Of a DNA stretch of 64,000 nt, positions 431-60,205 are shown one piece after another (the first letter of the stretch is position 1; every line of letters starts with the position of its first letter). The notes under the pieces are model-generated. The model saw only the letters and a list, made by a program, of their open reading frames with translations, did no database searches and was not told the origin of the DNA. The position numbers were made by a program, and so were the translations under genes. Source of the stretch: Vicinamibacterales bacterium. Its GTDB lineage: Bacteria > Acidobacteriota > Vicinamibacteria > Vicinamibacterales > Vicinamibacteraceae. Location: contig CAWIBS010000036.1 of assembly GCA_963834365.1 (NCBI GenBank), positions 277,439 through 341,438 of the forward strand, in the 5' to 3' direction.

Positions 431-629
431 AGCTACGAGTTACGAGTTACCAGTTACCAAAAAGACCAAAGACCAAAGACCAAAGACCAAAGTGAGCTTC
501 CAATGCACGCCGGACCTAAAGGTCCGGCCTACCAGTGAGGCCGCGGCAAGATCGGTAGGGCGGGGCTTCAGCCCCGCCGACGGGGACCGAAGACCGAAGA
601 CCAAGACCGAAGACTGAAGACTGAAGACC
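431..629. repeat. Composite intergenic repeat cassette: heptamer arrays flanking two palindromes
   Basis: Read directly: GCTACGA GTTACGA GTTACCA GTTACCA (432-459), AAAA, GACCAAA x4 (464-491). Then hairpin GCCGGACC-TAAA-GGTCCGGC followed by CTACC (509-533), and GGTAG followed by hairpin GGCGGGGC-TTCA-GCCCCGCC (554-578). Then GACCGAA/GACTGAA x6 (585-629), ending on the ATG at 630. Confidence 0.9.
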
Positions 630-1391
630 ATGCCGTCCCCTCCCGCCGACTACTGCCGGCAGATCGAGGCATACCTGTGCCGGAAGAACGACGGGCACCT
701 GATTCGCATCGTCGGACCCGCGTTCGACAAGGTGCGAGGCTGGGAAGATCGCGGCATTCCGATCAAAATCGTGCTGCAGGGGATCGACCGCACGCTGGAG
801 CGGCGCGCAGGATCGCGCATGAAGCCGCGGCGGCCCGTTCGCATCGAGTTCTGCGAAGCCGACGTCCTCGACGCGTTCGATGCCTGGCGGCGGGCAGTCG
901 GCGTGGTCGCGGCGGCCGGTTCGGTCGATCCGGTTGACGCGGGCGGACCGTCGGCTGACGACGAGACGGAGGTCGTCCTGCCGGTGTCGCTCCGGCGCGC
1001 CGCCCCGCTCCAGCGACACATCGACCGGGCGATGAGCCGGCTGACGCAGCGGCGGCTCGACCCGGCGCTGCCGGCGCATCTCTCCGAGGCGATTGACGTC
1101 GCACTCGCGGCGCTCGACGGCCTCCGGGCGCGCGCGAAGGGGGCCCGGGGCCACGCCCGTGACGAAGTACGGTCGGCGCTGGCGGCGATCGATGCCAGCT
1201 TCACCCGTGCGGCGGCCGACGGTCTGGCACCGGACCAGCGCGCGCAGGTCGAACGCGAGGCCCGCCGCGAGCTCCAGCCCTTCCTGGCTCGGATGCCGGC
1301 CGACGCCCGGTCGCGGGCCATCGCCGCGGCGACGGAGCGGCTGGTCAGGACTGAGCTCGGCCTGCCTGACCTCGCCGGGGGGCTCCCTTGA
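630..1391 (+). CDS. Hypothetical protein (Arg/Ala-rich, no recognisable family)
   Basis: 253-aa ORF from ATG 630 with the same G/C third-position bias as neighbours; overlapping opposite-strand ORFs look like GC shadows. N-terminus CRQIEAYLCRKNDGHLIRIVGPAFDKVRGWEDRGIP. No Shine-Dalgarno; the ATG abuts the GACYGAA array. Confidence 0.5.
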   Translation: MPSPPADYCRQIEAYLCRKNDGHLIRIVGPAFDKVRGWEDRGIPIKIVLQGIDRTLERRAGSRMKPRRPVRIEFCEADVLDAFDAWRRAVGVVAAAGSVDPVDAGGPSADDETEVVLPVSLRRAAPLQRHIDRAMSRLTQRRLDPALPAHLSEAIDVALAALDGLRARAKGARGHARDEVRSALAAIDASFTRAAADGLAPDQRAQVEREARRELQPFLARMPADARSRAIAAATERLVRTELGLPDLAGGLP

Positions 1392-1430
1392 GAAAATTCG
1401 TCGGGTTCTGGGCTAGGCTGAACCGGGTCC

Positions 1431-2348
1431 ATGCTGGCTGACGCACCAGGATCGCTCGGGGCTGTCCACGGAACGGTCGTCAGCGCTGCTGACGCGGCCT
1501 CCCTCCACGAGCGTGCGGGCGCCGCACAGTGGGGGGTGTCGATCGATCGCTTTCACGAGGCGCTCGAGCGCACCGTCGCCAAGACGTTCGCCGACCACGG
1601 ACCTCCGCCGGGCTCGCTGGACGAGTATCTCGCGGCGCTGCACATCGAGGACCTGGCGCTGGCGGTCGGCTGCGCCGATGGCGCGGATTCGGCGTGGGAA
1701 GCGTTCATCGCACGCCACTGGGCCGACCTGACGCGGTCGGCGCAGGCGATGGCCGGTGCGGCGGAAGGCGATGAGATCTGCAGTGCGTTGATGGCCGACC
1801 TGTTCGCTCGCAGCGCGGATGCGTCAGCGCGGCGGCCGCTGTTCGATTACTTTCACGGCCGCAGCCGGATATCCACGTGGCTGCGCGCGCTGGCGTCGCG
1901 ACGACATGTGGACCGCCTGCGCGCCACGAAACGGCTCGAGCCGCTCGACGACGACGCGGCGGAGCGAGGAGCCGTGGACCGCGTCGATCCGGATCCCGAC
2001 GCGTCGCGGCTGGTCGAGGCTCTGCGGGCGGCCCTGCGACGAGCGGTGGCCGATCTGCCGTCGCGCGATCGCCTGCGCCTCGCGTATTACCATGCGGACG
2101 GCCTGACGCTTGCAGCCATCGGACGTCAGTTCGGCGAGCACGAAGCGACCGTCTCTCGAAAGCTCCACCGTACGCGCGAACGGCTGAGAGCGGACGTGGA
2201 CGAGGCGCTTCGCCAGGCCTATAACCTGGGACCGGACGAGATGGCGCAATGCTACGAAGACGCCATTGCGGCGGGCGGCATCGATCTGGGGATGCTGCGC
2301 CCTGATACAGTGGATCCGCAAGTTCCGGTATCGGCGAACGTTCCCTGA
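1431..2348 (+). CDS. Sigma-70 family (ECF-like) RNA polymerase sigma factor with N-terminal extension
   Basis: 305-aa ORF. The C-terminal LRLAYYHADGLTLAAIGRQFGEHEATVSRKLHRTRERLR is a region-4 helix-turn-helix, and FDYFHGRSRISTWLRALASRRHVDRLR resembles region 2. The stop TGA 2346-2348 directly abuts the anti-sigma ORF. Confidence 0.75.
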   Translation: MLADAPGSLGAVHGTVVSAADAASLHERAGAAQWGVSIDRFHEALERTVAKTFADHGPPPGSLDEYLAALHIEDLALAVGCADGADSAWEAFIARHWADLTRSAQAMAGAAEGDEICSALMADLFARSADASARRPLFDYFHGRSRISTWLRALASRRHVDRLRATKRLEPLDDDAAERGAVDRVDPDPDASRLVEALRAALRRAVADLPSRDRLRLAYYHADGLTLAAIGRQFGEHEATVSRKLHRTRERLRADVDEALRQAYNLGPDEMAQCYEDAIAAGGIDLGMLRPDTVDPQVPVSANVP

Positions 2349-3494
2349 TTGGACATGGTACGCCTCGACCCGAATCTTGCCATCGGCGGCCTGGCAGCCC
2401 GTGAGCTCGGCGCTCCACGCAGGGGCAGCGATCCGACGGGGGCCGCGGGTCTGTGTCCCGATGCGGAGCAGCTGGCCGCATATGTGGACGACGGCCTCAC
2501 GGACACGCAGCGCGAGGGAATCGAAGCCCATCTGGCGGCGTGCACTGCATGCCGACGTCTGATGGCGGCGCTCGTGCCCGCCGACGAGCCCCGCGCCGAG
2601 CCCGCCGACGTGCTGCGTCCGGTCTTCCGCGTGGACTGGAAGTGGCTGTCGATGGCGGCGATGGTCGTGCTCGCGGTCGGCGTCTGGTATGCGATGCGGC
2701 CGGCTCTGCCACGGCCGCCCAGTCAGCCCATGGCTCAAAGCGCGCCTGCACGACCCGATGCGGGAGAGGTCGCGGTGGCTGACACGCCGCGGCCCCGCGC
2801 CGCCGAGCCGCCACGGGCCGCGGCAAAGCCTTCGCCGCCGCCGGGACAGGCTGCGAGTGAGGTCGCTGACTCGTCCAACCGTCAAGCGACCGCGTTCACG
2901 ACCGAACAATTCCGACAACAGCAGGAGGCGGAACGCCGCCTCAAGAATCAGACGGAAGCAGCGGCGGCGAAGCGGCGCGAGTCCGCCGAAGGGGCAAAGG
3001 CCTCAGTGCAGGCGGCGCGCGCGGAGGCGCCAGTGCCTGCGCCGTCTCCGGCCGCCGCGGCCGCAGCCGCCGGCAGCGGGCGCGCCAACGTCGCCGCCGC
3101 CGCACCTCCCGAGGCCATCCTCACGGCGGCGCCGGCGTCGGCCGGGAGCGTCTTCGCCGATCCGGAGCGCCGGCTGCTGTGGCGGATTGTCGGCGGCAAC
3201 CGCATCGAATCGTCGAGCGACGCCGGGGCGACGTGGACGTCGCGTCATCGCGAGCCATCGGCGCGGCTGGTGACGGGCAGCGCGCCGTCGATCGAAGTGG
3301 CATGGGCGGCCGGCGCGCGCGGCGTCGTCCTTCGTCGAGTCGTGCCGGGCGGGTGGGTACGCGTGCCGGCGCCGGTGATCGAGACGCTCGTGTCGATCGA
3401 GGCGTCGGGCGCGAGTCACGCCGTCGTGTCCACCGCATCCGGCCAGCGATTCGCCACGCGCGACGGCGGGGCGACCTGGACCCTCGTTCCCTGA
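2349..3494 (+). CDS. Anti-sigma factor (zf-HC2), single-pass membrane protein with Asp-box C-terminal domain
   Basis: Starts TTG 2349 (or ATG 2355) right after the sigma stop. It has the zf-HC2 motif CPDAEQLAAYVDDGL...EAHLAACTACRRL and one hydrophobic span WLSMAAMVVLAVGVWYAM. An Ala/Pro-rich linker leads to two SxDxGxTW Asp-boxes (SSDAGATWT, TRDGGATWT). Confidence 0.7.
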   Translation: MDMVRLDPNLAIGGLAARELGAPRRGSDPTGAAGLCPDAEQLAAYVDDGLTDTQREGIEAHLAACTACRRLMAALVPADEPRAEPADVLRPVFRVDWKWLSMAAMVVLAVGVWYAMRPALPRPPSQPMAQSAPARPDAGEVAVADTPRPRAAEPPRAAAKPSPPPGQAASEVADSSNRQATAFTTEQFRQQQEAERRLKNQTEAAAAKRRESAEGAKASVQAARAEAPVPAPSPAAAAAAAGSGRANVAAAAPPEAILTAAPASAGSVFADPERRLLWRIVGGNRIESSSDAGATWTSRHREPSARLVTGSAPSIEVAWAAGARGVVLRRVVPGGWVRVPAPVIETLVSIEASGASHAVVSTASGQRFATRDGGATWTLVP

Positions 3495-3501
3495 ACCCAA
3501 A

Positions 3502-4801
3502 ATGGTGCCGCTCACACAGGGCGCGATCGTCGAGTTGACGATCGATCGACCCGTCGCGGGCGGGCGCATGCTCGCGCGGCTGGGGGGCCACGTCGTGCTC
3601 GTGACCGGCGCGATTCCCGGCGAGACGGTCCGCGCCCGCATCGAGCGCGTGGGCCGCGTCGTCCTCGCGAGCGCGTGCGACATCCTGACGCCGTCATCGA
3701 GCCGGCGCGCGCCGGCATATGACGCCTCCTGTGGAGGCGCGGCTTACGCCCACATCGCCTACGAGGCGCAACCCGCCCTCAAGGAGGCCGTGATCGTCGA
3801 TGCGCTGCGACACGGCGCGCGCATCGCCTGGACGACCGCGATTCGGGTGCACACCTCACACGAGCGCGGCTACCGGATGAAAGCGCGGCTGCGGGTGCGC
3901 GGCGCGCGGCCCGGGTTCCTGCGTGAAGGTACCCACGAGATCTGCAACGCGGCCGATACGGGACAGCTCCTCGAGGGCACGATGCCGGCGGTCGAGGGCT
4001 TCCTGCACGCGCTTCCTCGCCCGGTGCTCGAAAGCCTCGACGCGATCGAGCTCGCCGAGAATCTGCCGGGAACCGAGCGCGTGCTGCATCTCTCGTGGAT
4101 GGAGCGCTCACGCGTGCCGCGCGTGCTCGTCGAAGCCATCCGCGTGGTTGATGGCGTGACCGGCGTCACCGTGACCGATCGGGCGACGGGACTGCCGGTG
4201 CCCGTGGACGGCCGCGCGTTCGTCGCTGACCAGGTGCGCGCCTTCACGGAGGCACCGACGGGGGAGGGGAGCGGCGCCGTGCTTCAACGGCATGCGCCGG
4301 CGTTCTTCCAGGCGAACCGCTTTCTGCTCCGCGAGTCTCGTCGCTGCGGTGCTGCGGCAGGTGCCCGACGGGCCGGTGGTCGATCTGTACTCGGGAGTGG
4401 GCCTGTTTGCGATTGCCCTCGCCGCCCGCGGCCAGCCCTCGGTGACCGCGGTCGAAGGCGATCCCGTGTCCGGTTCGGACCTGTCCGCGAATGCGACAGC
4501 GTTCGGCGCACGGATCACGGTCCATCGCGAGGGCGTCGAGTCATGGAGTGCACAGGAGCGGCTCGACCGGGAGGCGACGATCGTTCTCGATCCGCCGCGG
4601 ACCGGACTCTCACGACCGGCGCTCGATGGCCTGCTGGCGCTGCGCGCTCCGCGACTGGTGTACGTGTCGTGCGACGTCGCGACGCTGGCGCGCGACGTCC
4701 GCCTCGCGACCGGCGCCGGCTATCGGCTCACGCACCTCGAAGCCTTCGATCTCTTTCCGAACACGGCGCACGTCGAGACACTGGCCGTGCTCTCGCGGTA
4801 G
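3502..4801 (+). CDS. TRAM-domain class I SAM-dependent RNA (uracil-5) methyltransferase, RlmD/TrmA family; one apparent frameshift
   Basis: ORF 3502.. gives the TRAM-like N-terminus (GAIVELTIDRPVAGGRMLARLGGHVVLVTGAIPGETVRARIE) through ...HAPAFFQANRFLL. The SAM-binding half (VVDLYSGVGLFAIALA, IVLDPPRTGL, YVSCDVATLARD, LEAFDLFPNTAHVE) continues in another frame (ORF 4292..4801). The frame change lies near 4335. Confidence 0.75.
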
Positions 4802-13058: not shown

Positions 13059-13067
13059 GCGGTTGTC

Positions 13068-13131
13068 TACTTCCGAATTCCACTTCCACCTTCCGACGTC
13101 CAACTTTCCGACTTCCGACTTCCAAACTTCC
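13068..13131. repeat. Heptamer tandem array (ACTTCCR-type, about 9 units) between lnt stop and prfB start
   Basis: Read directly: ACTTCCG AATTCCA CTTCCAC CTTCCGA CGTCCAA CTTTCCG ACTTCCG ACTTCCA AACTTCC, ending 3 nt before the prfB ATG. Confidence 0.85.
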
Positions 13132-13133
13132 CT

Positions 13134-14274
13134 ATGCCTCTCGAACGTGAAGATCTGCTTCGTCGCTACCAGGATCTCGTCAAGCGCGCGTCCGCGCTGC
13201 GGAGTTATCTTTGACGGCTCACGCCCCGCTGAAGAACTGACACGAATCGAAACGCGCGTCGCCGAGCCCGACTTCTGGAAGGACCAGAGTGAAGCGCAGC
13301 GGCTGCTCCAGCGGCGCCGGCGCCTCGAAGAGGACGTGACGTTGCGCGAGTCGCTCGCCCGGCGGGCGGGCGACCTTGCGGTCCTCGCCGAATGGCTGGA
13401 AGGCGGCGAGCCGGTCGAGGACGACCTCGCCCGAGGGCTCGACGAACTGGCGGCGGAGGTCGACGCCGGCGAGATCAAGAAGATGCTCGGCGGCGAGCAC
13501 GATCGCCGCAACGCCATCATCACCGTGCATCCCGGGGCCGGCGGTACCGAATCGCAGGACTGGGCCGAGATGCTCCTGAAGATGTACCTGCGCTGGGCCG
13601 AACGCCGCGGCCTGTCGATCGAGCTGATGGACCATCAGCCCGGCGACGAAGCCGGGATCAAGTCGGCCACCGTGGCCGTCAACGGCGAGTACGCGTACGG
13701 CCTGCTGATGGCCGAAGCCGGTGTGCATCGTCTCGTCCGCATCTCGCCGTTCGACCAGGCCAAGCGCCGGCACACGTCGTTCGCGTCGCTGTACGTGTGG
13801 CCCGAGATGCCGGACGATGTGGACCTCACGATCGAGGACAAGGATCTGCGCGTCGATACCTATCGATCCAGCGGGGCCGGCGGCCAGCACGTCAACGTCA
13901 CCGACTCCGCGATCCGCCTCACCCACATTCCGACCGGCATCGTCGTCTCGTGCCAGAACGAGCGATCCCAGCACAAGAACCGGGCGTCTGCGATGAAAGT
14001 GCTGAAGGCCCGGCTCTACGATCGGAAGTTGAAGGAGCAGCAGGAGGCGCTCGAGAAGCTGGGCGGCGAGAAGAAGGACATCGCCTTCGGCAGCCAGATC
14101 CGCAGCTATGTGCTGCAGCCCTACCAGATGGCGAAGGACCACCGGACGAAGGTCGAGATCGGCGACGTCGAGCGGGTCCTCAACGGCGACCTCGACGGCT
14201 TCATCAAGGCGTATCTGATGGCGAAAGCCTCAGGCACTCTCGGCCAGGCCGTGGATGCCGGCGACGATGCGTAG
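13134..14274 (+). CDS. prfB: Peptide chain release factor 2, translated via programmed +1 frameshift (13134..13211 joined to 13213..14274)
   Basis: The zero frame is ATG 13134 MPLEREDLLRRYQDLVKRASALRSYL, ending at in-frame TGA 13212-13214. The +1 frame from 13213 continues DGSRPAEELTRIETRVAEPDFWKDQ.... Downstream are the RF2 SPF tripeptide (VRISPFDQ) and the GGQ motif (SSGAGGQHVNV). Confidence 0.95.
13200..13215 (+). promoter_or_regulatory. RF2 autoregulatory +1 frameshift site
   Basis: CGG AGU UAU CUU UGA C: the slippery CUU followed by UGA-C, with an internal SD-like GGAG (13201-13204) 4 nt upstream. This has the same architecture as the classical prfB site. Confidence 0.9.
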
Positions 14275-17979: not shown

Positions 17980-18050
17980 GGAGGGCGCCCCTTCAGGGGC
18001 GCCGAACGAGGGGCCGACGTCGCCGCGGCGGGGCTGAAGCCCCGCCCTCC
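17980..18050. repeat. Inverted pair of REP-like hairpins
   Basis: GGAG-GGCGCCCC-TTCA-GGGGCGCC (17980-18003) and GGCGGGGC-TGAA-GCCCCGCC-CTCC (18027-18050). They lie between the DUF6600-like gene stop and the PBP start. Confidence 0.85.
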
Positions 18051-18068
18051 TTGGAGTGGCGACGAGGG

Positions 18069-20106: not shown

Positions 20107-22057
<1,951 letters not shown>

Positions 22058-22160
22058 GGACGATGACGAATGACGAAGGTCCGGCGCCGACATGCGGCCG
22101 GCGGGGCCTCGACAGCGTTGGCTCTCGTCATTCATCGTCACTCGTCGTTCGTTCGTAGAC

Positions 22161-27362: not shown

Positions 27363-27387
27363 GAAGGAGGAAGGAGGAAGGAAGGGA
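27363..27387 (+). repeat. GAAGGAG x3 tandem heptamers (three stacked SD-like motifs) upstream of hemW
   Basis: Read directly: GAAGGAG GAAGGAG GAAGGAA GGGA, 30 nt upstream of ATG 27417. Confidence 0.8.
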
Positions 27388-29752: not shown

Positions 29753-29781
29753 TGGCGAGAGCAACGCGCCGCCGCATCCCC

Positions 29782-32494: not shown

Positions 32495-32536
32495 GGCCAA
32501 GCTCCTTTCACTCCCATCGCAGGCAAATACGCACCC

Positions 32537-33400
32537 ATGTCCATTCGAATCGGCGTCATCGGCGGCAGCGGACTCTACGACATGGCCGAGTTGACCGGCC
32601 GTCGGGACGTGTCCGTCGACACGCCCTTCGGTCCGCCGTCCGGGCCTTTCATCGTCGGGTGTCTGGCGGGCCGCGAGGTGGCGTTTCTCGCCCGGCACGG
32701 CCCGGGCCATCGCCTGACTCCCTCCGAGCTGAACTTCCGCGCCAACATCTACGCGATGAAGACGCTGGGCGTCGAGCGCATCCTGTCGGCGAGCGCCGTC
32801 GGCAGCCTCAAGGAGGAGTACGCGCCGCTCGATCTCGTCGATTCCCGATCAGTTCGTCGATCGCACGCGCGGCCGCGTCAGCACGTTCTTCGGCGACGGG
32901 CTCGTCGGCGCACGTCGCCTTCGCGCATCCGTTCTGCCCCGACCTCAGTGCCGCCGCCTACGACGCCGCGGTCGGCGGCGGGCGCGAGCGTCCACAAGGG
33001 CGGCACCTACGTCTGCATGGAGGGACCGCAGTTCTCGACGCGTGCCGAGTCCCTGCTCTATCGCCAGTGGGGGATGGACATCATCGGGATGACCAACCTC
33101 CAGGAGGCCAAGCTCGCGCGGGAGGCCGAGATCTGCTACACGACGATTGCGCTCGTCACCGACTACGACTGCTGGCATCCCGAGCACGACTCGGTGACGA
33201 CCGAGATGATCATTGCGAACCTGGTGCAGAACGCGAGCATGGCGCAGAAGGTCATCGCGGCGGCGATCGCGGCGCTCGACACGGGCGCGCGCACCTGCAG
33301 TTGCGCCTCCGCGCTCGCCGCCGCGCTCATCACGCGTCCCGAACACGTGCCCGAGGCCACCAAGCAGAAGCTGGCGCCGATCATCGGCAAGTACCAATGA
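32537..33400 (+). CDS. mtnP: S-methyl-5'-thioadenosine phosphorylase; internally frame-scrambled segment
   Basis: MSIRIGVIGGSGLYD...FLARHGPGHRLTPSELNFRANIYAMKTLGVERI and YVCMEGPQFSTRAESLLYRQWGMDIIGMTNLQEAKLAREAEICY are in one frame. Between about 32835 and 32990 the homologous text (IPDQFVDRTRGRVSTFFGDG, AHVAFAHPFCPDLSAAAYDA) is in other frames, implying at least three compensating indels. Confidence 0.85.
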   Translation: MSIRIGVIGGSGLYDMAELTGRRDVSVDTPFGPPSGPFIVGCLAGREVAFLARHGPGHRLTPSELNFRANIYAMKTLGVERILSASAVGSLKEEYAPLDLVDSRSVRRSHARPRQHVLRRRARRRTSPSRIRSAPTSVPPPTTPRSAAGASVHKGGTYVCMEGPQFSTRAESLLYRQWGMDIIGMTNLQEAKLAREAEICYTTIALVTDYDCWHPEHDSVTTEMIIANLVQNASMAQKVIAAAIAALDTGARTCSCASALAAALITRPEHVPEATKQKLAPIIGKYQ

Positions 33401-33425
33401 CGTGAACGCGACCAGTCGCTCCGCA

Positions 33426-33449
33426 GGAGGGCGCGGCTTCAGCCGCGCC
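33426..33449. repeat. REP-like hairpin
   Basis: GGAG-GGCGCGGC-TTCA-GCCGCGCC. Confidence 0.85.
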
Positions 33450-33528
33450 AGGCTCCCGCGGCCAGACGGCCGGGCTGAACGCCACGAACCCTACCTGTCC
33501 GAGATCTGGACTAGCCGCAGCGCTTCAC

Positions 33529-37847: not shown

Positions 37848-37931
37848 GCTACGGACGACGGACTACGGACGCGGACTACGGGCCTGTACGTCTTGCAAGC
37901 CCTGCAGCCGCAGCCCGTAAGCCCGTAGCCC
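37848..37931. repeat. Inverted heptamer arrays forming a long hairpin 3' of nusB
   Basis: Left arm GCTACGG ACGACGG ACTACGG ACGCGG ACTACGG GC (37848-37883). Right arm CCCTGCAG CCGCAG CCCGTAA GCCCGTAG CCC (37900-37931). CTACGGG pairs with CCCGTAG. Confidence 0.85.
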
Positions 37932-37959: not shown

Positions 37960-39472
<1,513 letters not shown>

Positions 39473-52148: not shown

Positions 52149-52966
52149 CTGCCTCGTCCACGCCTGGCCTGGCCTCGCTGACGCGGCTCGGCGCGGTGAG
52201 CTATCTGAACACCCGCCCGCTCGTCTACGGGCTCGAGCACCGGCCGGAGTTGCTGCTGCGCTTCGACGTCCCGTCGCGGTGCGCCGATCTGCTCGCCGGC
52301 GGCCTGGTGGATCTGGGGTTGATCCCCGCGTTCGAGTTCGCGCGTCACGGCGGCTACGCGATCGTCCCCGATGTGTCGATTGCGTCGCACGGTGCGGTCG
52401 ATTCCGTCGCGCTGTTCACGCGTCGTCCGATCGGCGACGTGCGATCCATTGCGCTCGATGCCAGCTCGCGCACGTCGGCCAACCTCGTGCGCCTGCTGTG
52501 CGCGCGTCAGTTCCGTATCGCCCCGGTATTCGTGGACGCAGCGCCCGACCTGCCGTCCATGCTGGCCCGATGCGATGCTGCGCTGCTGATTGGCGATCCG
52601 GCGCTCTTCACCGACCCGGCCGCGTTCGACAGCGAGAAGATCGATCTGGGTGCCGCCTGGACCGACCTGACGGGCCTGCCTTTCGTCTGGGCCTTCTGGG
52701 CGGGGATTCCAGGCGCCGCCTCTCCCGCGGTGTGCCGTCTGCTTCGTGACGCGCGCGATCGGGGCGTGGCGGAAATCGACGTGATCGCCTCCCGCGAAGC
52801 ACCCGATGATCCGGCGCGCCGTGCTCGAATCGCGCGCTATCTCCGCGAGTCGATCGCCTACGATTTCGAGGGATCGCTGGTCCGGGGTGTGTCGCTCTTC
52901 TTCGGCCTGCTCGAGGAGGAAGGGCTCGTCAGTCGCGCCCCCGCCCTGACCTTCTACGATGCGTGA
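52145..52966 (+). CDS. mqnA: Chorismate dehydratase MqnA (futalosine pathway)
   Basis: Intact 273-aa ORF. LGAVSYLNTRPLVYGL, DLGLIPAFEFARH and PFVWAFWA match the MqnA/VitK2 periplasmic-binding-like family pattern. Confidence 0.8.
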   Translation: MTASSTPGLASLTRLGAVSYLNTRPLVYGLEHRPELLLRFDVPSRCADLLAGGLVDLGLIPAFEFARHGGYAIVPDVSIASHGAVDSVALFTRRPIGDVRSIALDASSRTSANLVRLLCARQFRIAPVFVDAAPDLPSMLARCDAALLIGDPALFTDPAAFDSEKIDLGAAWTDLTGLPFVWAFWAGIPGAASPAVCRLLRDARDRGVAEIDVIASREAPDDPARRARIARYLRESIAYDFEGSLVRGVSLFFGLLEEEGLVSRAPALTFYDA

Positions 52967-53061
52967 TCCGGATGGGGACTGTCCCCCTGTGGAAGACTTT
53001 GTGGAAAATGGTGACGGTGGGGCGACAGGTGGCAAGTTCTGCCACTAGACTCTGCGGGACC

Positions 53062-54649
53062 GTGTCGCGCCGCCTCGCACCGCTCACTCACGCGTCGTTC
53101 GACGTCCTGATCATCGGCGGCGGCATCGTCGGTGCCGGGATTGCGCGTGACGCGGCCCTGCGCGGCCTTTCGGTCGCGCTCGTCGAGCAACACGACTACG
53201 GCAGCGGCACCACGGCGGGCTCGACGCGCCTGATCCATGGCGGTCTCCGCTATCTGGAGATGTTCGACTTTCCCCTCGTGCGTCTCGACCTGCGCGAGCG
53301 GGAAACGCTGCTTCGGATAGCGCCGCATCTCGTCAAGGCGCTGCAGTTCGTCCTGCCGTTCTATGACGAGCGCCTGTTCGCACGCCTGCGGCTGCGCGCC
53401 GGGATGTGGCTGTATGACGCGCTCAGCTTCGACAAGAGCCTGCCGCGCCATCGCGTACTGTCGGCGTCCGGCGTCCGCGCGCTCGAGCCGGCGTTGAACG
53501 CCGACGGCCTCGTCGGCGGCGCCACATATTTCGATGCCCAGGCGGCCATGCCCGAGCGGCTCTGCCTCGAGAACGTCCTCGACGCGTGCGACCTCGGGGC
53601 GGTGGCGGCGAACTACGCGCGGGCCGTGGACGCCAGGCGGGTCGGCGAGGCGCTGTCGCAGGTCACCGTCCGCGACATGCTCGGCGATGACGAGGTGGAG
53701 GTTCGGACGCGGCTGATCGTGAACGCGACCGGCGCGTGGCTCGATCGTGTGAACACCCAGGTGCTCGCCGACCGCCGGGCACGCCTGCGGACGACCAAGG
53801 GCGTGCACCTCGCGTGTCCGCCGACCGTGTCGCGGGCGCTCGCGGTACCGTCTGCGGTGGATGGCCGGCTCGTGTTCGTCATTCCCTGGCTCGGCCACAC
53901 CTGGATCGGGACGACCGACACGGATTTCGACGATGACCCGGCGCAGGCGCGTGCGGACGCGGCCGACGTCAGCTACCTGCAGGCGTCGGTTCGACGCTAT
54001 GTGCCAGCGCTCGCCGACGCTCCCGTGCACTTCACCAACGCCGGCGTTCGGGCGCTCGTGCGGCAGTCCGGACACGAGTCGTCGGTCTCCCGCAGCCACG
54101 ACCTCGTGGACGGCGATCGGGACGGACATCCGCACCTGATCGAGGTGGTTGGCGGCAAGCTGACAGGCTACCGTGCCATTGCCGAGGAAGTGACCGATCT
54201 GCTCTGTCGCAAGCTCGGGTCGTCGGAGCGGGCGACGACGGGGCAGCGGCTGCTGCCGGGGGCTGGAGCGTCCGAGGGGGCCTCGGGACTCCCGATCGAG
54301 GCGCTCGAGCCGGTCTATGGGCGTCGGGTCGGGCGGCTCGCGGCGCTCGCCGCCGCGGACCCGGCGCTGGGCCAGCAACTCGCCCCCGCCTATCCAGACA
54401 TCGGCGCCCAGGCTGTGCTGGCGGCGCGCGAGGAGCACTGCGCCACCCTCGCCGATTTCCTGCTCCGGCGGACGCAGGCTCGGGTTCACGGCCGATCAGG
54501 GATGGGCGGCCGTTCCGCGCGCAGCCGATCTGCTGGCGCGGGAACTGGGGTGGAGTCCCGTCCGCCGGGACGCGGAAGTCGCCGCCTATCGAGCCGCCAT
54601 CGAATCGACGCAGGCCTGGCGACACGGGATGATAAATTCAGATCGATGA
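53062..54649 (+). CDS. glpD: FAD-dependent glycerol-3-phosphate dehydrogenase; one apparent frameshift
   Basis: GTG 53062 (ATG 53008 also possible). It has FDVLIIGGGIVGAGIARDAALRGLSVALVEQHDYGSGTTAGSTRLIHGGLRYL and KGVHL. An extra A at 54476 breaks ...DFLLRRT-RLGFTADQGWAAVPRAADLLARELGW.... The corrected frame stops at TGA 54647-54649. Confidence 0.85.
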
Positions 54650-55872
54650 CGATCGACGCCCTCGCCCGCAAGGTGGACGCCGGCACACGCCTCGACGCCG
54701 AGGACGCGCTGGCGCTCTACACGCAGGCGCCGACGGCTCTGCTGGGCCGTCTGGCCGACGGCGTGCGCGCCCGGAAACATCCGGAGCGGATCGTCACCTA
54801 CATCATCGACCGCAACGTCAACTACACGAACATCTGCGTGGCGCGCTGCAACTTCTGCGCCTTCTACCGGCCGGTGGGGCACGGCGACGGCTACGTCCTG
54901 TCGTTCGACGAGATCTTCCGGAAGATCGACGAGACGATCGCGGTCGGCGGCGTGCAGTTGCTGCTGCAGGGCGGACACAATCCGGACCTGCCGCTGCAGT
55001 GGTACGAGGATCTGTTTCGCGCCGTGAAGGCGCGCTACCCGGACTTCAAGCTGCACGCGCTGTCGCCGTCGGAGGTGCTGCACATCTCGCGGCTCTCGCG
55101 GCTGTCCACGCCCGAGGTGATCGCCCGGCTCATCGACGCCGGGCTCGACAGCATCCCCGGCGGCGGCGCCGAGATCCTCGTCGATCGCGTGCGCAAGCTC
55201 CTCAACTGCTACAGCAAATCCACCGCCGACGAATGGCTGCGCATCATGGGCGAGGCGCACGCGGCGGGGCTGCGCACCACGGCGACGATGATGTACGGCA
55301 GCGTCGAGACGATGGCCGAGCGCGTCGAGCATCTGGTGCGGCTGCGCGAGCTGCAGGATCGCACCGGCGGCTTCACCGCCTTCATTGCCTGGAGCTATCA
55401 GCCGGAGCACACCGAGCTGGGCCTGCACGAAGCCACCGGCGTGGATTACCTGCGCACACTCGCGCTCGCACGCATCGTCCTCGACAATTTCGACAATCTG
55501 CAGGCCTCGTGGGTGACGCAGGGCGGCAAGGTGGGTCAGATGAGTCTTGCCTTCGGCGCCAACGACATGGGCAGCGTGATGATCGAGGAGAACGTCGTGC
55601 GGGCGGCGGGGGCGAGCTACTGCATGGACGAAGTCGAGATCGTCCGCAACGTGGAGAACGCCGGCTTCACCGCGCAGCGTCGCAACATGCACTACGAGAT
55701 ACTCGGCAACCCGATCTTCCGCGAGCGCGCCATGCCGCGCCGCTTGTCGCTCGACGTCGCCAAGGCCGAGGGCGACGCGCTCATGCCCGACGAGCTGTCA
55801 GGCTACGCCGCGCGCAGCCGCGGCGCCCGCGAGCGCCGCACGACCGTCCCGACGAGCGATCGCGTGCACTGA
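54646..55872 (+). CDS. mqnC: Radical SAM futalosine-pathway enzyme, probably MqnC (MqnE not excluded)
   Basis: ATG 54646 overlaps the glpD stop (ATGA). It has NYTNICVARCNFCAF (CxxxCxxC), LLLQGGHNPDL, PGGGAEIL, TGGFTAFIAWSYQPEHT and FGANDMGSVMIEEN. The FIAW/QGG pattern leans towards MqnC/CofH rather than MqnE. Confidence 0.8.
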   Translation: MTIDALARKVDAGTRLDAEDALALYTQAPTALLGRLADGVRARKHPERIVTYIIDRNVNYTNICVARCNFCAFYRPVGHGDGYVLSFDEIFRKIDETIAVGGVQLLLQGGHNPDLPLQWYEDLFRAVKARYPDFKLHALSPSEVLHISRLSRLSTPEVIARLIDAGLDSIPGGGAEILVDRVRKLLNCYSKSTADEWLRIMGEAHAAGLRTTATMMYGSVETMAERVEHLVRLRELQDRTGGFTAFIAWSYQPEHTELGLHEATGVDYLRTLALARIVLDNFDNLQASWVTQGGKVGQMSLAFGANDMGSVMIEENVVRAAGASYCMDEVEIVRNVENAGFTAQRRNMHYEILGNPIFRERAMPRRLSLDVAKAEGDALMPDELSGYAARSRGARERRTTVPTSDRVH

Positions 55873-55882
55873 TTCGGTAGAT

Positions 55883-56074
55883 CAGTCTTCGGTCGTCAGT
55901 CTTCGGTCCGTGGTGCACACTCGCCGGACCTGAAGGTCCGGCCTACCGTTTCCATAGTCCGGCCTCCCGTTTCCATAGACGTTCGGTAGGGCGGGGCTTC
56001 AGTCCCGCCGCAGGCCGGGCGCAGCCCGGCACAAGCCCCGAAGACCGAAGACCGAAGACCGAGGACCAAAGACC
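55883..56074. repeat. Second copy of the composite repeat cassette, with inverted heptamer arms
   Basis: Left arm CAGTCTTCGGTCGTCAGTCTTCGGTC (55883-55908, reverse complement of GACCGAAGACTG...). Hairpin GCCGGACC-TGAA-GGTCCGGC followed by CTACC (55923-55947). A 21-nt tandem duplication TCCGGCCT(A/C)CCGTTTCCATAG (55937-55978). GGTAG followed by GGCGGGGC-TTCA-GTCCCGCC (55984-56009). Hairpin GCCGGGC-GCA-GCCCGGC. Right arm GAAGACC x3 GAGGACCAAAGACC (56039-56074). Confidence 0.9.
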
Positions 56075-56159
56075 CTTTCTGGCGTTTGACTTTCCCCGAT
56101 GGCCTGGATTCTACTTTTCCCGGTTTCGACCGTTCGGTTCGATCGGTTCCGGGGATCCC

Positions 56160-56963
56160 ATGGCTGATGTGCAGGTGGTGGCGCGGCGGGGGTTCGGGGA
56201 GACGACACGCCGCGACGCCTGGTGGGTGATCCCGGTCTCGGTCTTCCTCGGGCTTTCGACGTTCGTTGTCTATTCCACGTGGGCCGCCTTTCAGGGCGAG
56301 CATTACACCCACGGTCCGTATCTCTCGCCGTTCTACTCGCCCGAGCTCTTCGGCGACTCGCCGCACGCGTGGTTCGGACCGAAGCCGGGATGGTGGCCCG
56401 GATGGCTGCCGTTCTCGCCGGCGCTGTTGATCCTGTGGGCGCCCGGCGGGTTTCGCTTCACCTGCTACTACTACCGCGGCGCCTACTACAAGGCGTTCTG
56501 GGCCGATCCGCCGGCCTGCACGGTGGGCGAGCCCCGCCCGCAGGCCTACCGCGGTGAAGCATCGTTCCCGCTCATTCTGCAGAACGTGCACCGCTACTTC
56601 CTCTACCTGGCGCTGGGCTTCGTCGTCCTGCTGGCGTACGACGCGTGGAAGGCGCTGTGGTTCGTCGATGCGGCGACGGGCCGTGAGTCGTTCGGCATCG
56701 GCGTCGGCTCGCTCGTGCTGGCGGCCAACGTCGTGTGTCTCGCCAGCTACACCTTCGGGTGCCACTCGCTGCGGCACCTGGTCGGCGGCCGCGTCGACTG
56801 CCTGGCGGGCGCGCCGGGCCAGCACGCCTGCTACCGCGGCGTGAGCGCATTCACCCGGGCGCACCAGCGCTGGGCCTGGATCAGTCTGTTCATCGTCGGC
56901 TTTTCCGATCTCTACGTGCGCCTCTGCTCGATGGGTGTCTGGACCGACTGGAGGCTGCTCTGA
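56160..56963 (+). CDS. sdhC: Succinate dehydrogenase/fumarate reductase membrane anchor (single large cytochrome b-type subunit)
   Basis: Intact 267-aa ORF with about 5 hydrophobic spans and conserved His residues (HYTHGPY, NVHRYFLY, GCHSLRHL). It lies immediately upstream of sdhA with a TGATG overlap. Confidence 0.7.
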   Translation: MADVQVVARRGFGETTRRDAWWVIPVSVFLGLSTFVVYSTWAAFQGEHYTHGPYLSPFYSPELFGDSPHAWFGPKPGWWPGWLPFSPALLILWAPGGFRFTCYYYRGAYYKAFWADPPACTVGEPRPQAYRGEASFPLILQNVHRYFLYLALGFVVLLAYDAWKALWFVDAATGRESFGIGVGSLVLAANVVCLASYTFGCHSLRHLVGGRVDCLAGAPGQHACYRGVSAFTRAHQRWAWISLFIVGFSDLYVRLCSMGVWTDWRLL

Positions 56964-58789
56964 TGGCAGCCTGGCAGACCCACGACTACGATGTGCTCAT
57001 CATCGGCGCGGGCGGAGCGGGACTGAGGGCGGCGATCGAAGCATCCGCGGCCGGCGTCTCCGTCGGCGTGGTCTGCAAGTCCCTTCTCGGAAAGGCGCAC
57101 ACGGTGATGGCCGAGGGCGGCATCGCGGCGGCGCTCTCGAACGTCGACGATCGCGATGGCTGGCAGGTGCACTTCGCCGACACGATGCGCGGCGGCCAGT
57201 ACGTCAACAACGCGCGGATGGCCGAGATTCACGCCCGGGAAGCGCCCGCGCGCGTGCGCGAGCTCGAAGCCTGGGGGGCGCTGTTCGATCGCACGGCCGA
57301 CGGCCGGATCCTGCAACGCAACTTCGGCGGCCATCGGTATCCGCGCCTTGCGCACGTCGGGGATCGGACCGGCCTGGAGATGATCCGCACGCTCCAGGAC
57401 CACGGCGTCCACCAGGGCATCACGTTTCACATGGAATGCACGGTCACGCGCCTGCTGACGTCGGGCGAGGGCATCGTCGGCGCCTTCGGCTACGACCGTG
57501 AGAAGGGCCGGTTCCGCGTGTTCACCGCCAGGGCGGTCGTGCTGGCGACGGGCGGGATCGGCCGGGCATTCTCGGTGACGAGCAACAGCTGGGAGTACAC
57601 GGGCGATGGCCATGCCCTGGCGTACGACGCGGGCGCGGACCTCATCGACATGGAGTTCGTTCAGTTCCATCCGACCGGCATGGTCTGGCCGCCGAGCGTC
57701 CGCGGCATCCTCGTCACCGAGGGCGTTCGCGGCGAGGGTGGCGTGCTGCGCAACCGGGACGGCCGCCGCTTCATGTTCGATCACATTCCCGATCTGTACG
57801 CGACCCAGACGGCGACCGACGAGGAAGAGGGCTGGCGCTACTGCCAGGGCGACAAGAGTGCCAACCGGCCGCCCGAGCTCCTGACCCGCGACCACGTCGC
57901 GCGCTGCATCGTCCGCGAGATCCGCGAAGGGCGGGGGAGCCCGCACGGCGGGGTGTTCCTGGACATCTCGTGGATCAAGGCGCGGGTGCCGAACGGCGAG
58001 GATCACATCCGCCGCAAGCTGCCGAGCATGTACCACCAGTTCAAGGAGCTCGCGGGCATCGACATCACGAAAGAGCCGATGGAAGTTGGACCGACGACGC
58101 ACTACGTGATGGGCGGGGTGCGGGTGGATGCCGAGACGCAGATGTCGTCGGTTCCCGGACTGTTCGCCGCTGGCGAATGCGGCGCCGGCCTGCACGGGGC
58201 CAACCGCCTCGGCGGCAACTCGTTGTCGGACCTGCTCGTGTTCGGCAAGCGGGCCGGCGAGCACGCCGCCGCGTTCGCCCGCTCGCGGGGCGAGACCGAG
58301 ACCCGCGTCGACGAGTCGCAGGCCGACGCGGCCGCGCGCGCGGCGCTCGAGCCGCTCGAGCGCCAGGGGAGCGCCGACACGGGAAATCCCTTCCGGATCC
58401 AGCACGATCTGCAGTCGATGATGCAGAAGCTCGTGGGGATCGTGCGCCGCGAGGACGAGATGCGCGAGGCGCTCGACGGGCTCCGGCTGTTGCGCCAGCG
58501 CGCGACCCAGGCCATCTCGCCGGGGAACCGGGAATACAACCCGGGTTGGCACACCGCGCTCGATCTCGACAACCTGCTGACGGTCTCCGAGGCCGTCACG
58601 CTGGCGGCGCTCGAACGGCGGGAGAGCCGTGGCGCGCAGTTCCGCGACGACTATCCGGACAGGGATCCCGTCTTCGGCAAGCTGACGATCGTCGTCCGCA
58701 AGGGCGCCGATGGCACGATGCACGTCGTGCGCGAGCCGATTCCGGAGCTGAGCGCCGAGCACAAGGCGATCGTGGAGGCGAACAGGTGA
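56963..58789 (+). CDS. sdhA: Succinate dehydrogenase/fumarate reductase flavoprotein subunit
   Basis: YDVLIIGAGGAGLRAAIEA (FAD), SLLGKAHTVMAEGGIAA (covalent-FAD His region), HPTG, HYVMGGV and GANRLGGNSL. Confidence 0.95.
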   Translation: MAAWQTHDYDVLIIGAGGAGLRAAIEASAAGVSVGVVCKSLLGKAHTVMAEGGIAAALSNVDDRDGWQVHFADTMRGGQYVNNARMAEIHAREAPARVRELEAWGALFDRTADGRILQRNFGGHRYPRLAHVGDRTGLEMIRTLQDHGVHQGITFHMECTVTRLLTSGEGIVGAFGYDREKGRFRVFTARAVVLATGGIGRAFSVTSNSWEYTGDGHALAYDAGADLIDMEFVQFHPTGMVWPPSVRGILVTEGVRGEGGVLRNRDGRRFMFDHIPDLYATQTATDEEEGWRYCQGDKSANRPPELLTRDHVARCIVREIREGRGSPHGGVFLDISWIKARVPNGEDHIRRKLPSMYHQFKELAGIDITKEPMEVGPTTHYVMGGVRVDAETQMSSVPGLFAAGECGAGLHGANRLGGNSLSDLLVFGKRAGEHAAAFARSRGETETRVDESQADAAARAALEPLERQGSADTGNPFRIQHDLQSMMQKLVGIVRREDEMREALDGLRLLRQRATQAISPGNREYNPGWHTALDLDNLLTVSEAVTLAALERRESRGAQFRDDYPDRDPVFGKLTIVVRKGADGTMHVVREPIPELSAEHKAIVEANR

Positions 58790-59526
58790 ACGCCACGTTC
58801 CGGATCTGGCGCGGGGACGCGAGCGGCGGCGCCCTGAAGGACTATCGCACCGAGGTGTCGGAAGGCATGGTCGTGCTCGACGCCGTGCATCAGGTGCAGG
58901 CGGAATCGGCGCCCGATCTCGCGGTCCGCTGGAATTGCAAGGCCGGCAAGTGCGGCTCCTGCTCAGCCGAGGTCAACGGTCAGCCGAGGCTGATGTGCAT
59001 GGCGCGGCTGAGCGATCTCGACCTGACGCAGCCGGTCACGATCGAGCCGATGCAGGCCTTTCCGCTGATGCGCGATCTCGTGAGCGACGTATCCTGGAAC
59101 TTCGCGGTCAAGCAGAAAATCAAACCCTTCACGCCGCGGCAGCCGGACGCGCCCGACGGCACCTGGCGGATTGCTCAGGCCGACGTCGACCGCGTGCAGG
59201 AGTTCCGCAAGTGCATCGAGTGCTTCCTCTGCCAGGACGTGTGCCATGTCCTCCGGGACCATCACCGGCACGAGGCGTTCATCGGGCCGCGGTTCCTCGT
59301 CTACGCCGCCGCGCTCGAGATGCACCCGCTCGACGTGGAGGACCGCATCGAGGACCTGAAATCCACCCACGGCGTGGGCTACTGCAACATCACCAAGTGC
59401 TGCACGAAAGTCTGTCCGGAGCACATCACGATCACCGACAATGCGATCATTCCGTTGAAGGAGCGCGTGGTGGACCGGTTCTACGATCCGCTCACGCGCC
59501 TGCTGCGGCTGGTGAAGCCAGCCTGA
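58786..59526 (+). CDS. sdhB: Succinate dehydrogenase/fumarate reductase iron-sulfur subunit
   Basis: GTG 58786 overlaps the sdhA stop (GTGA). It has CKAGKCGSCSAEVNG (2Fe-2S), CIECFLCQDVC and CTKVCP (4Fe-4S/3Fe-4S clusters). Confidence 0.9.
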   Translation: MNATFRIWRGDASGGALKDYRTEVSEGMVVLDAVHQVQAESAPDLAVRWNCKAGKCGSCSAEVNGQPRLMCMARLSDLDLTQPVTIEPMQAFPLMRDLVSDVSWNFAVKQKIKPFTPRQPDAPDGTWRIAQADVDRVQEFRKCIECFLCQDVCHVLRDHHRHEAFIGPRFLVYAAALEMHPLDVEDRIEDLKSTHGVGYCNITKCCTKVCPEHITITDNAIIPLKERVVDRFYDPLTRLLRLVKPA

Positions 59527-59535
59527 GGAGACCTC

Positions 59536-60048
59536 ATGTTTGCGCTGAAGCGGCTGTCGCCCGACGCGATCCCGGCGGCGCTCGAGCGAGCCGAGCGTTA
59601 CCGGTTGCTGAACGAGCCGATCGATGCCGAGAGCATCTGTGAGGACGTGCTCGCGATTGCGCCCGGCCATCAGGGCGCGCTGGTCATGCTGCTGCTGGCG
59701 TTGACCGACCAGTTCGGGGAGCGCCTCGGCCCGGCGCTGGCGCGCTCACGGAGCGTGCTCGCGCAGATCGAGGATTCGTATTCCCGGTTGTACTATTCGG
59801 GCCTGCTGGCGGAGCGAGCGGCCAAGGCACACCTGCGCCGTGGCGGGTTCGCGTCCGGGCACGTCGCCTACGAGCTCGCGTCCGAGGCCATGGCCGCGTA
59901 CGAGCAGGCCGCCGCCCAGGCGCCCGCGGGCAACGACGAGGCCACGTTGCGCTGGAATACGTGCGCGCGCCTCATCGACGCCAATCCGAACATGGTGCCC
60001 GCGCCGCGCGAGCGGGAAGAGGCGATGCTGGACGCGCGGGTCGACTAG
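59536..60048 (+). CDS. Hypothetical helical protein, fourth gene of the sdh operon
   Basis: Intact 170-aa ORF, 9 nt after the sdhB stop, on the same strand and with the same codon bias. It looks all-helical and TPR-like (ALERAERYRLLNEP...AMAAYEQAAAQAP). I cannot name a family. Confidence 0.5.
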   Translation: MFALKRLSPDAIPAALERAERYRLLNEPIDAESICEDVLAIAPGHQGALVMLLLALTDQFGERLGPALARSRSVLAQIEDSYSRLYYSGLLAERAAKAHLRRGGFASGHVAYELASEAMAAYEQAAAQAPAGNDEATLRWNTCARLIDANPNMVPAPREREEAMLDARVD

Positions 60049-60049
60049 C

Positions 60050-60205
60050 CAGCGACCAACTCCAACTACCAACTACGAACTACCAACTACGAACTACGAA
60101 CTACGAACTACGAACTACGACCAACGACACGACGATCGTTCGTACCTGGTAGCTGGTAGACTGGTGCCTAGCGTAGCTGGTAGCTGGTAGCTGGTAGCTG
60201 TCTAG
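60050..60205. repeat. Opposed heptamer arrays around a short palindrome, between convergent genes
   Basis: Left arm CAACTCC AACTACC AACTACG AACTACC AACTACG x5 (60050-60128). Centre ACGACGATCGTTCGT. Right arm GGTAGCT GGTAGAC TGGTGCC TAGCGTA GCTGGTA GCTGGTA GCTGGTA GCTG (60144-60205). GGTAG pairs with CTACC, so the arms are partly complementary. Confidence 0.9.

Follow-up and report, generated by a model that had tools for sequence, protein, structure and literature searches.

What are tandem arrays of 7-nt units doing between the genes of a Vicinamibacterales bacterium? The question is raised by a 64,000-nt stretch of contig CAWIBS010000036.1 (GenBank assembly GCA_963834365.1, positions 277,439 to 341,438 of the forward strand), referred to below as the window, in which an earlier reading of the letters (the original prediction) had listed heptanucleotide arrays at many spacers. 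Among the long simple repeats of free-living bacteria, heptanucleotide arrays are the most frequent class. The arrays of the window were genuine heptanucleotide simple-sequence arrays, of the short tandemly repeated repetitive (STRR) or long simple sequence repeat (SSR) kind, in a Vicinamibacterales-like (Acidobacteriota) genome. The explanation towards which the evidence leans, if not strongly, is that they are insertions born by slippage that persist only in forms compatible with the RNA, either as open leaders or as hairpins that loop the insertion out, with the unit sequence itself probably not the functional determinant.

Every array of the original prediction was recovered by Tandem Repeats Finder, and the raw sequence concurred. 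When the sequence was compared with itself at offsets of 4 to 12 nt (18 or more matches within 21 nt), there were 7 runs of period 7, covering 341 nt of the window, and zero strict runs for periods 4-6 and 8-12; with looser thresholds period 7 was still ahead. In total, 13-14 arrays were found in the window (GC content of 68.9%), within nine intergenic spacers or running over a gene 3' end. They were kept out of coding sequence, lying between stop and start or overrunning a 3' end, mostly inside co-directional gene clusters, and their neighbors were housekeeping genes (coaX, prfB, MTAP, nusB, and lysS). The ninth locus, at 22058-22160, was absent from the earlier list. The arrays and the elements associated with them, including hairpins resembling repetitive extragenic palindromes (REP), are as follows:

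428-459, plus strand: (GTTACGA/GTTACCA) array of 4.6 copies, beginning 2 nt past the coaX stop (424-426).
461-492, plus strand: perfect (AAAGACC) array of 4.6 copies in sense orientation.
510-578: pair of REP-like GTAG-hairpin modules (510-533, reversed, and 554-578) between the arrays of the coaX spacer.
585-629, plus strand: (GACCGAA/GACTGAA) array of 6.6 copies, abutting the ATG at 630.
13069-13131, plus strand: (ACTTCCR) array of about 8 copies, between the stop of an lnt-like gene (13058) and the prfB ATG at 13134.
22058-22160, plus strand: hairpin of two inverted arms, (ATGACGA)n and (TCGTCAT)n, that takes up all of the spacer separating the stop at 22057 from the ATG at 22161 (z-score, z, of -2.9).
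27363-27385, plus strand: short (GAAGGAG) array of 3 copies, resembling a Shine-Dalgarno (SD) motif.
32328-32360, plus strand: (TCAGGGA) array of 4.7 copies, taking the place of the last codons and original stop of the MeaB-epimerase open reading frame (ORF).
32375-32406, plus strand: (CCCGTAG/CCTGCAG) array of 4.6 copies, providing the present in-frame stop (32380-32382).
32426-32488, plus strand: sense array of 8.6 copies, passing from GACCAAA to GACCGAA to GACTGAA, in the leader of the MTA phosphorylase gene (ATG at 32537).
37849-37881, plus strand: (CTACGGA) array of 4.6 copies, the 5' arm of the nusB-lysS hairpin (z -2.4), beginning 9 nt past the nusB stop.
37908-37931, plus strand: (CCCGTAG) array of 3.3 copies, the 3' arm paired with 37849-37881, with 28 nt between its end and the lysS ATG at 37960.
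55873-55908, plus strand: GTCTTCG-type array, the 5' arm of a large hairpin, directly past the stop at 55872.
55909-56037: core of this hairpin, which holds four small hairpins; the REP-like modules at 55924-55947 and 55985-56009 are among them.
56038-56074, plus strand: (CGAAGAC) array of 5.3 copies, the 3' arm, pairing with 55873-55908.
60055-60135, plus strand: (AACTACS) array of about 11 copies, beginning 7 nt past the stop at 60048.
60142-60200, plus strand: (GTAGCTG) array of 8 copies, the arm with partial complementarity to 60055-60135, its end 1 nt short of the stop (60202) of a convergent minus-strand gene.

As in long SSRs, the arrays consist of tandem units within the 5-11 nt range and are longer than expected by chance, and their unit, not being a multiple of three, is excluded from coding sequence. 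Most distances to the neighboring genes were as predicted: the ATGs at 630, 32537, and 56160 follow the end of an array by 0, 42, and 85 nt, respectively, and other arrays begin 2-10 nt past the stops at 426, 37839, and 60048. The stop at 32382, which had been described as adjoined by an array, in fact lies inside the CCCGTAG array (32375-32406). Readings of the arrays as CRISPR or as iterons were rejected. Rfam returned 0 matches at or above the gathering score in the window.

Homologues of the MTA phosphorylase (MTAP) were named Vicinamibacterales or Luteitalea, and a locus from a Vicinamibacterales metagenome-assembled genome (MAG; L052) had 76% nucleotide identity to the gene at 56160. Syntenic loci were taken from other assemblies: L119, with 93.0% nucleotide identity over 21 kb; L343, a mosaic with 88-96% identity; and L120 and L121, from two Joint Genome Institute (JGI) samples, with about 79% identity to the window. 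All four bear heptamer arrays, several at the same spacers as the window. An assembly artefact was excluded because independent assemblies hold arrays at orthologous spacers (L119, L343, L120/L121, and L052). The window itself differs from L119 (over 22532-43495) by about 190 indels, mostly of 1 nt, a single G/C, and inside genes; lysS (37960-39472) and nusB, intact in L119 and L120, appear in the window in pieces or with a scrambled frame. Judging from this alignment, the 1-nt indels look like residual long-read assembly errors, which would explain why many window ORFs are broken. Since they break ORFs, gene calls were taken from the syntenic loci.

Comparison of orthologous spacers showed the arrays to be insertions into tight spacers, ancestrally of 4-5 nt. 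The MeaB-MTAP spacer is 4 nt long in L120 and 154 nt in the window. The nusB-lysS spacer measures 5 nt in L144, L146, and L151, and 20-37 nt in four other relatives; with a heptamer hairpin it reaches 120-152 nt in the window, L119, L343, and L120, and in L148 it has 145 nt with unrelated direct arrays. Between MTAP and pfkB, three states were found among relatives with at least 92% identity: 18 nt in L343, 128 nt with a REP-like hairpin in the window, and 141 nt with arrays in L119. The identity between L343 and L119 rises from 92% to 96.4% exactly at this spacer (L343 10861-10886), and the repeat-bearing spacer may be a recombination breakpoint.

The same comparisons showed that arrays are gained and lost, and change unit and copy number, between relatives of 79-96% identity. 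The window and L119 are separated by 29-nt and 18-nt indels in arrays, with 4.7 vs. 8.6 copies of (TCAGGGA), and L343 has a GACYRAA array with a different unit order. Units pass into one another by single-base steps, in L119 from CAACTAC through CAACGAC and GACCGAC to GACCGAA. In the nusB-lysS hairpin both arms changed together, being CTACGGG/CCCGTAG in the window and GGCTCAA/TTGAGCC in L120, and the spacer orthologous to 27363-27385 is occupied in L119 by (GGAGGAA)3 and in L120 by an (AAGTACG)/(CGTACTT) hairpin. However, L120 and L121, which are 99.97% identical over 20.5 kb, showed no gap and no mismatch in any array; turnover is thus fast between species and not hypervariable within a strain. 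The predicted change of copy number was accordingly seen between relatives but not between these two. The proposal that unit type follows position, with TAC-containing units after stops, was not supported as stated, since the array that begins at 55873, directly past a stop, belongs to the GACCGAA class, CCCGTAG arms adjoin starts, and in relatives the same spacers are occupied by unrelated units (GGCTCAA/TTGAGCC in L120, CAGGCAG in L148). It is strand composition and pairing that follow position.

An unbiased sample of relatives, comprising 647 kb around MTAP from metagenomes together with L119 and L120, was also scanned for tandem repeats. Period 7 was again dominant, with 52 strict runs, followed by period 8 (21), period 9 (12), and no more than one for any other. 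Period-8 arrays, the second commonest class in the relatives (L123-L202), are an observation of their own, and the slippage preference may be for 7-8 nt instead of strictly 7. Array density was 0.8 per 10 kb and very uneven among genomes, many relatives having no array in 20 kb. About 45 different units occurred among the 52 arrays, GACYRAA only once. The results support units that are genome-specific, with fast turnover, a few families recurring at unlinked spacers within one genome: GACYRAA at three spacers and CTAC/GTAG at four in the window, AAAATKC in L133, and AGCAGGC in L148.

At one locus an array has altered a protein. The MeaB-epimerase ORF, its own stop lost, continues into the arrays, and its C-terminal tail is array-encoded, in line with the effect on a reading frame predicted at 32329; how long the tail is thus depends on the copy number of the arrays. 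Neither the window nor L119 retains the original stop. The ORF spans 30940-32382 in the window, 8379-9950 in L119, and 8584-9996 in L120 (480, 523, and 470 aa, respectively), and in all relatives it joins a MeaB GTPase to a glyoxalase-fold domain resembling methylmalonyl-CoA epimerase. Arrays of this kind mislead gene callers, which extend ORFs through them, as in the 523-aa MeaB call in L119.

Such an altered tail, a 7-nt unit that is not a multiple of 3, and copy numbers that differ between species-level relatives might suggest phase-variation (contingency) loci, at which copy-number change switches the neighboring genes. This was rejected as most improbable: the neighbors are housekeeping genes, not surface or virulence genes, the arrays lie between stop and start and not in promoters or early coding sequence, and no copy-number change was seen at the strain level, L120 and L121 being identical in every array.

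The arrays occur in two configurations that are relevant to RNA. Single arrays between co-directional genes had more A than T on the sense strand in 32 cases against 8 (p = 2e-4), or 23 against 8 once duplicate units were removed (p = 0.011), and their mean A-T skew was +0.14, compared with +0.003 in flanking coding sequence. Because A and C cannot pair, single arrays give almost structure-free RNA in this GC-rich genome. The leader at 585-650 folds at only -1.3 kcal/mol, the RNA at 13066-13150, with the prfB ATG at 13134 lying 2 nt past its array, at -2.6 kcal/mol, the MTA phosphorylase leader (32418-32550) at -10.2 kcal/mol (vs. -56 for random windows), and the stretch at 60050-60135 alone at 0.0 kcal/mol. 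Random windows of the same lengths gave -25 to -56 kcal/mol; all 150 of them were less open than the array RNAs. The antisense of the single arrays in the window would fold 4-19 kcal/mol better. Among relatives, sense was less structured than antisense in 20 arrays vs. 10 (p = 0.02), and in 25 of 31 the sense strand had less structure than random windows. An SD-like motif preceded only 2 of 12 checked starts. Nevertheless, anti-SD pairing works in this organism, to judge by prfB (RF2), read from the ATG at 13134: an internal GGAG stands ahead of CTT TGA C at 13208, the classical site of programmed +1 frameshifting.

A second form is the inverted pair. A reverse-complement partner was present within 160 nt for 17 of 59 arrays (29%), and the pairs fold to long imperfect hairpins of 30-70 bp with z of -2.4 to -8.9. 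The 5' arm lies next to the stop, beginning 0-25 nt past it and at times including it, and the 3' arm lies next to the following start, ending 2-30 nt before it. In the largest case, 55873-55908 is the reverse complement of 56038-56074 and forms an outer stem around a 130-nt core, the 209-nt multi-hairpin element (55870-56078) folding at -105 kcal/mol (z -6.0). For the hairpin at 60055-60200, z was -5.2 (plus strand) and -7.1 (minus strand). The facing complementary arms of the original prediction are thus hairpin arms in some pairs, but the pair at 37848-37931 had been placed between converging genes and is in fact between the co-directional nusB and lysS.

Could such elements end transcription, the C-rich, G-poor post-stop arrays as Rho loading sites and the hairpins as terminators? 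Two post-stop arrays that face convergent genes, 60055-60135 and, read as its reverse complement, 60142-60200, are rich in C, poor in G, and unstructured, and single arrays had a sense C>G tendency (28:13). This tendency was however not significant after duplicate units were removed (20:13), and most arrays lie in co-directional clusters, where termination would be harmful. Unlike intrinsic terminators, in which a GC-rich hairpin precedes a U-tract, the window sequence has no T-run 3' of the hairpins at nusB-lysS, 55873-56074, and 60055-60200, and promoter and terminator consensus scans (terminators over 55500-61500) found nothing at the arrays. Termination is therefore regarded as unlikely.

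The GACYRAA family allowed the hairpin form to be followed across phyla. An exact scan of 185,579 genomes for 3.4 copies of GACYRAA found at least 118 loci; the counts that follow for this family refer to the matches listed. These belonged to Acidobacteriota, Bacteroidota, Planctomycetota, Chloroflexota, Gemmatimonadota, Proteobacteria, Nostocaceae, and others, and contained 196 period-7 runs vs. no more than 20 for any other period. The inverted partner was 5' of the GACYRAA arm at 23 loci and 3' at 4, and the prevailing form was 5'-(GTCTTYR)n-loop-(GACYRAA)n-3', found in Acidobacteriota, Bacteroidota, Chloroflexota, and other phyla. This arm order reads alike on both strands; either order gives the same duplex and only the first arm differs, and the GTCTTYR-first order puts the A-rich arm beside whichever start follows. 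Orientation to the flanking genes showed a weak sense excess (29:20 for all arrays, 22:13 for single ones). Special abundance of GACCAAA was not supported, with 8 occurrences of (GACCAAA)3 in viral contigs vs. 12 and at least 120 for permuted controls.

The loops or cores of the 23 hairpins showed no conservation, so the hairpins are not one mobile element. This bears on whether the arrays as a whole are dispersed elements resembling REPINs or miniature inverted-repeat transposable elements (MITEs), with heptamer-array ends, placed in spacers by a transposase. Recurrence of unit families at unlinked spacers of one genome (GACYRAA, CTAC/GTAG, AAAATKC, and AGCAGGC), wholesale spacer replacement between relatives of at least 92% identity, and two spacers that join arrays to REP-like GTAG hairpins would all be consistent with it. 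Loops and cores, however, differed between copies and across phyla, neither a target-site duplication nor terminal inverted repeats with fixed ends were visible, and the single-base gradation of units in the L119 array is as expected of evolution in place. No transposase gene was linked to the arrays in the 64 kb examined, in which a search for Y1/RAYT (REP-associated tyrosine) transposases was not made. A mobile origin is considered improbable on these grounds.

Two further features were observed in the hairpins of this family. The stop before the 5' arm of GTCTTYR hairpins was TAG in 9 of 13 readable cases, often within the first repeat unit (loci L001, L013, L033, L052, L057, L065, L088, L099, and L103), which suggests that arrays overwrite gene ends and themselves supply the stop. 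In other phyla, nested hairpins of two or three heptamer families were seen (L013 at about 4100-4370, L068 at 1600-1900, L076, and L097); in L013, outer (TGAATNG)n/(CNATTCA)n arms enclose inner (TTTGGTC)n/(GACCAAA)n arms.

The complement of (GACCAAA)n is (GTCTTTG)n, the exact optimum heptamer of the cold-shock protein (Csp) CspB, and the other unit families differ from it. For CspB of B. subtilis the optimum is 5'-GTCTTTG/T-3', with one protein per heptamer, position 3 being C and positions 2, 4, and 6 being T (PMC1904285), and Csp binding has also been considered for another heptamer array (PMC4679880). If Csp coated the first-transcribed GUCUUYG arm, the hairpin might be kept open, allowing antitermination or downstream translation. 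The prevalence of GTCTTYR as the 5' arm across many phyla (23 vs. 4) and the same layout at 55873-56074 of the window, L052, and L120 agree with this idea. On the other hand, most families are unlike a Csp site (CTACGGG, AACTACG, TCAGGGA, ACTTCCG, and GGCTCAA), single arrays mostly present GACYRAA and not GUCUUYG in the mRNA (22 vs. 13), the viral-contig counts of GACCAAA fall below those of its permuted controls, and Csp proteins have weak sequence specificity. As an account of the arrays it is thus very improbable. Hardly better placed is the bolder proposal that 5'-(GUCUUYG)n-loop-(CRAAGAC)n-3' hairpins form a widespread Csp-titrated RNA switch, in which Csp abundance, varying with temperature or growth state, would decide on the hairpin and hence on coupling or read-through. 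The match was spotted after the fact and concerns a single unit family, and the Csp link may be taken as a lead only.

To return to slippage-born insertions filtered for RNA-compatible form, the following course of events may be envisaged. Replication slippage in steps of one 7-nt unit would create and reshape the arrays, and the arms of inverted pairs would be kept alike either by arm-to-arm template switching, of the type that acts on quasipalindromes, or by selection. Only forms that do not disturb operon expression would persist. In the first of these, single A-rich and often C-rich sense arrays would act as open leaders before mostly SD-less starts, or as open tails past stops. In the second, a fold-back hairpin would loop the insertion out, leaving stop and start close and translational coupling intact, and might also, in the manner of REP elements, shield the 3' end upstream of it.

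The serious rival is that the arrays are neutral slippage debris, tolerated anywhere in non-coding DNA without selection or function at the RNA level, which is a realistic possibility although not the expected one. Quick gain, loss, and replacement between close relatives, the diversity of units (about 45 among 52 arrays), the many array-free relatives, and hairpins with no energy asymmetry between sense and antisense are all as expected of debris. Against it stand a sense A>T bias of 32:8 next to zero skew in the flanks, leaders extremely free of structure, an inverted partner for 29% of arrays, and a GACYRAA arm order of 23 to 4.

Several points nevertheless weigh against selection for RNA-compatible forms. 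Fold energies of the hairpins showed no consistent advantage of the sense strand, and in the nusB-lysS hairpin the antisense strand was more stable in three genomes; G-U asymmetry, used as a test of RNA-level selection on hairpins, gave a mixed outcome. The lack of a sense-strand energy edge fits DNA-level or neutral maintenance as well as it fits RNA function. The C>G tendency is weak after duplicates are removed, and the arrays are dispensable, given the many relatives that have none. Spacer transcription, translational coupling, and any benefit are all presumed, and some start and stop assignments are approximate owing to the 1-nt indel errors of the window. Finally, the sole account of the period of 7 is the conjecture of Mrazek, as quoted in PMC4679880, that ties the 7-nt unit to polymerase slippage.

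How do these arrays compare with known repeat systems? The canonical STRR1-3 units are CCCCAGT, TTGGTCA, and CAACAGT, and TTGGTCT, the complement of GACCAAA, is reportedly one base off STRR2 (TTGGTCA). It is the closest of the window units, with 6 of 7 bases, the others being unrelated to these units. STRRs resemble the window arrays as dispersed intergenic tandem 7-nt units that form hairpins between genes, including co-transcribed ones such as hupS-hupL, where transcript stabilisation or translational coupling has been proposed (PMC2670836). The window shares the many dispersed arrays (nine spacers in 64 kb) and, in predicted folds, the hairpins between presumably co-transcribed genes. It differs in that STRRs belong to heterocystous cyanobacteria and its own closest homologues are Vicinamibacterales or Luteitalea, in an Acidobacteriota genome of 69% GC, with many unit families vs. 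three canonical ones and with units that vary even between close relatives. The likeness to STRRs in the original prediction thus holds for spacer-confined heptamers but not for units or taxon, and its statement that no function or layout of this sort had been described was contradicted by published STRR hairpins between co-transcribed genes (PMC2670836), start-proximal arrays in Beggiatoaceae (PMC4679880), and inverted pairs in Xanthomonas (PMC4692102).

In long SSRs with 5-11 nt units (Mrazek et al., 2007), heptamers are likewise the dominant class, intergenic, with inverted pairs occurring; Acidobacteria are not known to have been singled out in these surveys. The GGGAATC heptamers of Xanthomonas and GGGGAYT heptamers of Nostoc form inverted pairs and vary in length at orthologous positions (Rehm et al., 2015, PMC4692102), but their units are G-rich and quadruplex-capable, in contrast to the A/C-rich, structure-free sense strands of the window. 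In marine Beggiatoaceae, as well as in some Cyanobacteria and Bacteroidetes, TAACTGA direct repeats (MacGregor, 2015, PMC4679880) are sense heptamer arrays placed directly before starts in lieu of an SD motif, housekeeping genes included, and a role in translation and in binding of Csp or S1 has been proposed for them. They have one dominant unit and almost only direct repeats, with one inverted case, whereas the window lineage has many units and about a third of its arrays in hairpin pairs. Geobacter metallireducens also has genome-specific tandem heptamer families at many loci, with suggested regulatory roles (GGGACCG x4 at 49 sites; MTYCTGA x5), but these have a fixed copy number (4-5), are GC-rich, and occur within genes as well (PMC2700814). 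In Haemophilus influenzae, heptanucleotide SSRs such as that of the hmw1A promoter are phase-variable, the 7-nt unit lying in an untranslated region and its copy number modulating expression; these are single loci before surface adhesin genes of a host-adapted pathogen and are hypervariable within strains (PMC8262952, PMC12721329).

Enterobacterial REP sequences and bacterial interspersed mosaic elements (BIMEs) share with the arrays the position of intergenic hairpins within operons. REP sequences are said to stabilise upstream mRNA and, near a stop codon, to affect translation of the upstream gene. Each is a fixed imperfect palindrome, 20-40 nt long and headed by GTAG, that is mobilised by RAYT transposases, whereas the arrays are tandem 7-mers of variable length; the fixed palindrome with a GTAG/GGAG head is found in a separate hairpin family of the window. 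A literature search on repeats in Vicinamibacteria and Acidobacteria found no report of arrays like those described here.

The known heptamer class is thereby extended to the Vicinamibacterales, a lineage that is abundant in soil and has received little study, with three testable regularities: sense A-richness leading to structure-free leaders before SD-less starts, frequent stop-to-start fold-back pairs in spacers ancestrally of 4-5 nt, and a fixed arm order of GTCTTYG/CRAAGAC hairpins across phyla among the matches listed. The sense A bias, the structure-free leaders, and the fixed GTCTTYG arm order are the parts that deserve follow-up. If the regularities reflect selection, operon spacers can grow hundred-fold without breaking expression, and the arrays would be natural parts for tuning translation in high-GC hosts. 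On a bolder and improbable reading, slippage-born heptamer arrays would give high-GC bacteria a quick route to RNA spacers of zero or maximal structure.

The separate REP-like family of the window is a hairpin of the form (A/G)GGAGGGC-GGGGCTTCAGCCCC-GCC with a GTAG/GGAG head, whose stems carry compensatory variants (GCGCGGC..GCCGCGC, GCCGGGC..GCCCGGC). It also occurs in another Vicinamibacterales MAG (L068 1975-2012), and two of its copies form an inverted, REPIN-like doublet at 62493-62575. Its copies in the window are:

554-578: REP-like hairpin.
18027-18051, minus strand: REP-like hairpin.
29729-29753, minus strand: REP-like hairpin.
33423-33450: REP-like hairpin.
55985-56009: REP-like hairpin.
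62493-62518, minus strand: REP-like hairpin.
62548-62575: REP-like hairpin.
510-533: further REP-like hairpin.
55924-55947: further REP-like hairpin.

Two other features of the window were noted. A single 969-aa ORF at 52963-55872 combines a region resembling FAD-dependent glycerol-3-phosphate dehydrogenase (DAO, DAO_C) with a radical-SAM region resembling CofH/MqnC, and may be a real fusion or two genes joined by an assembly indel. At 44499-44587, tandem repeats of 21/42 nt (GCCCAGCCGGCGCAGCCACAA-like), unrelated to the heptamer arrays, apparently encode a Pro/Ala/Gln-rich segment.

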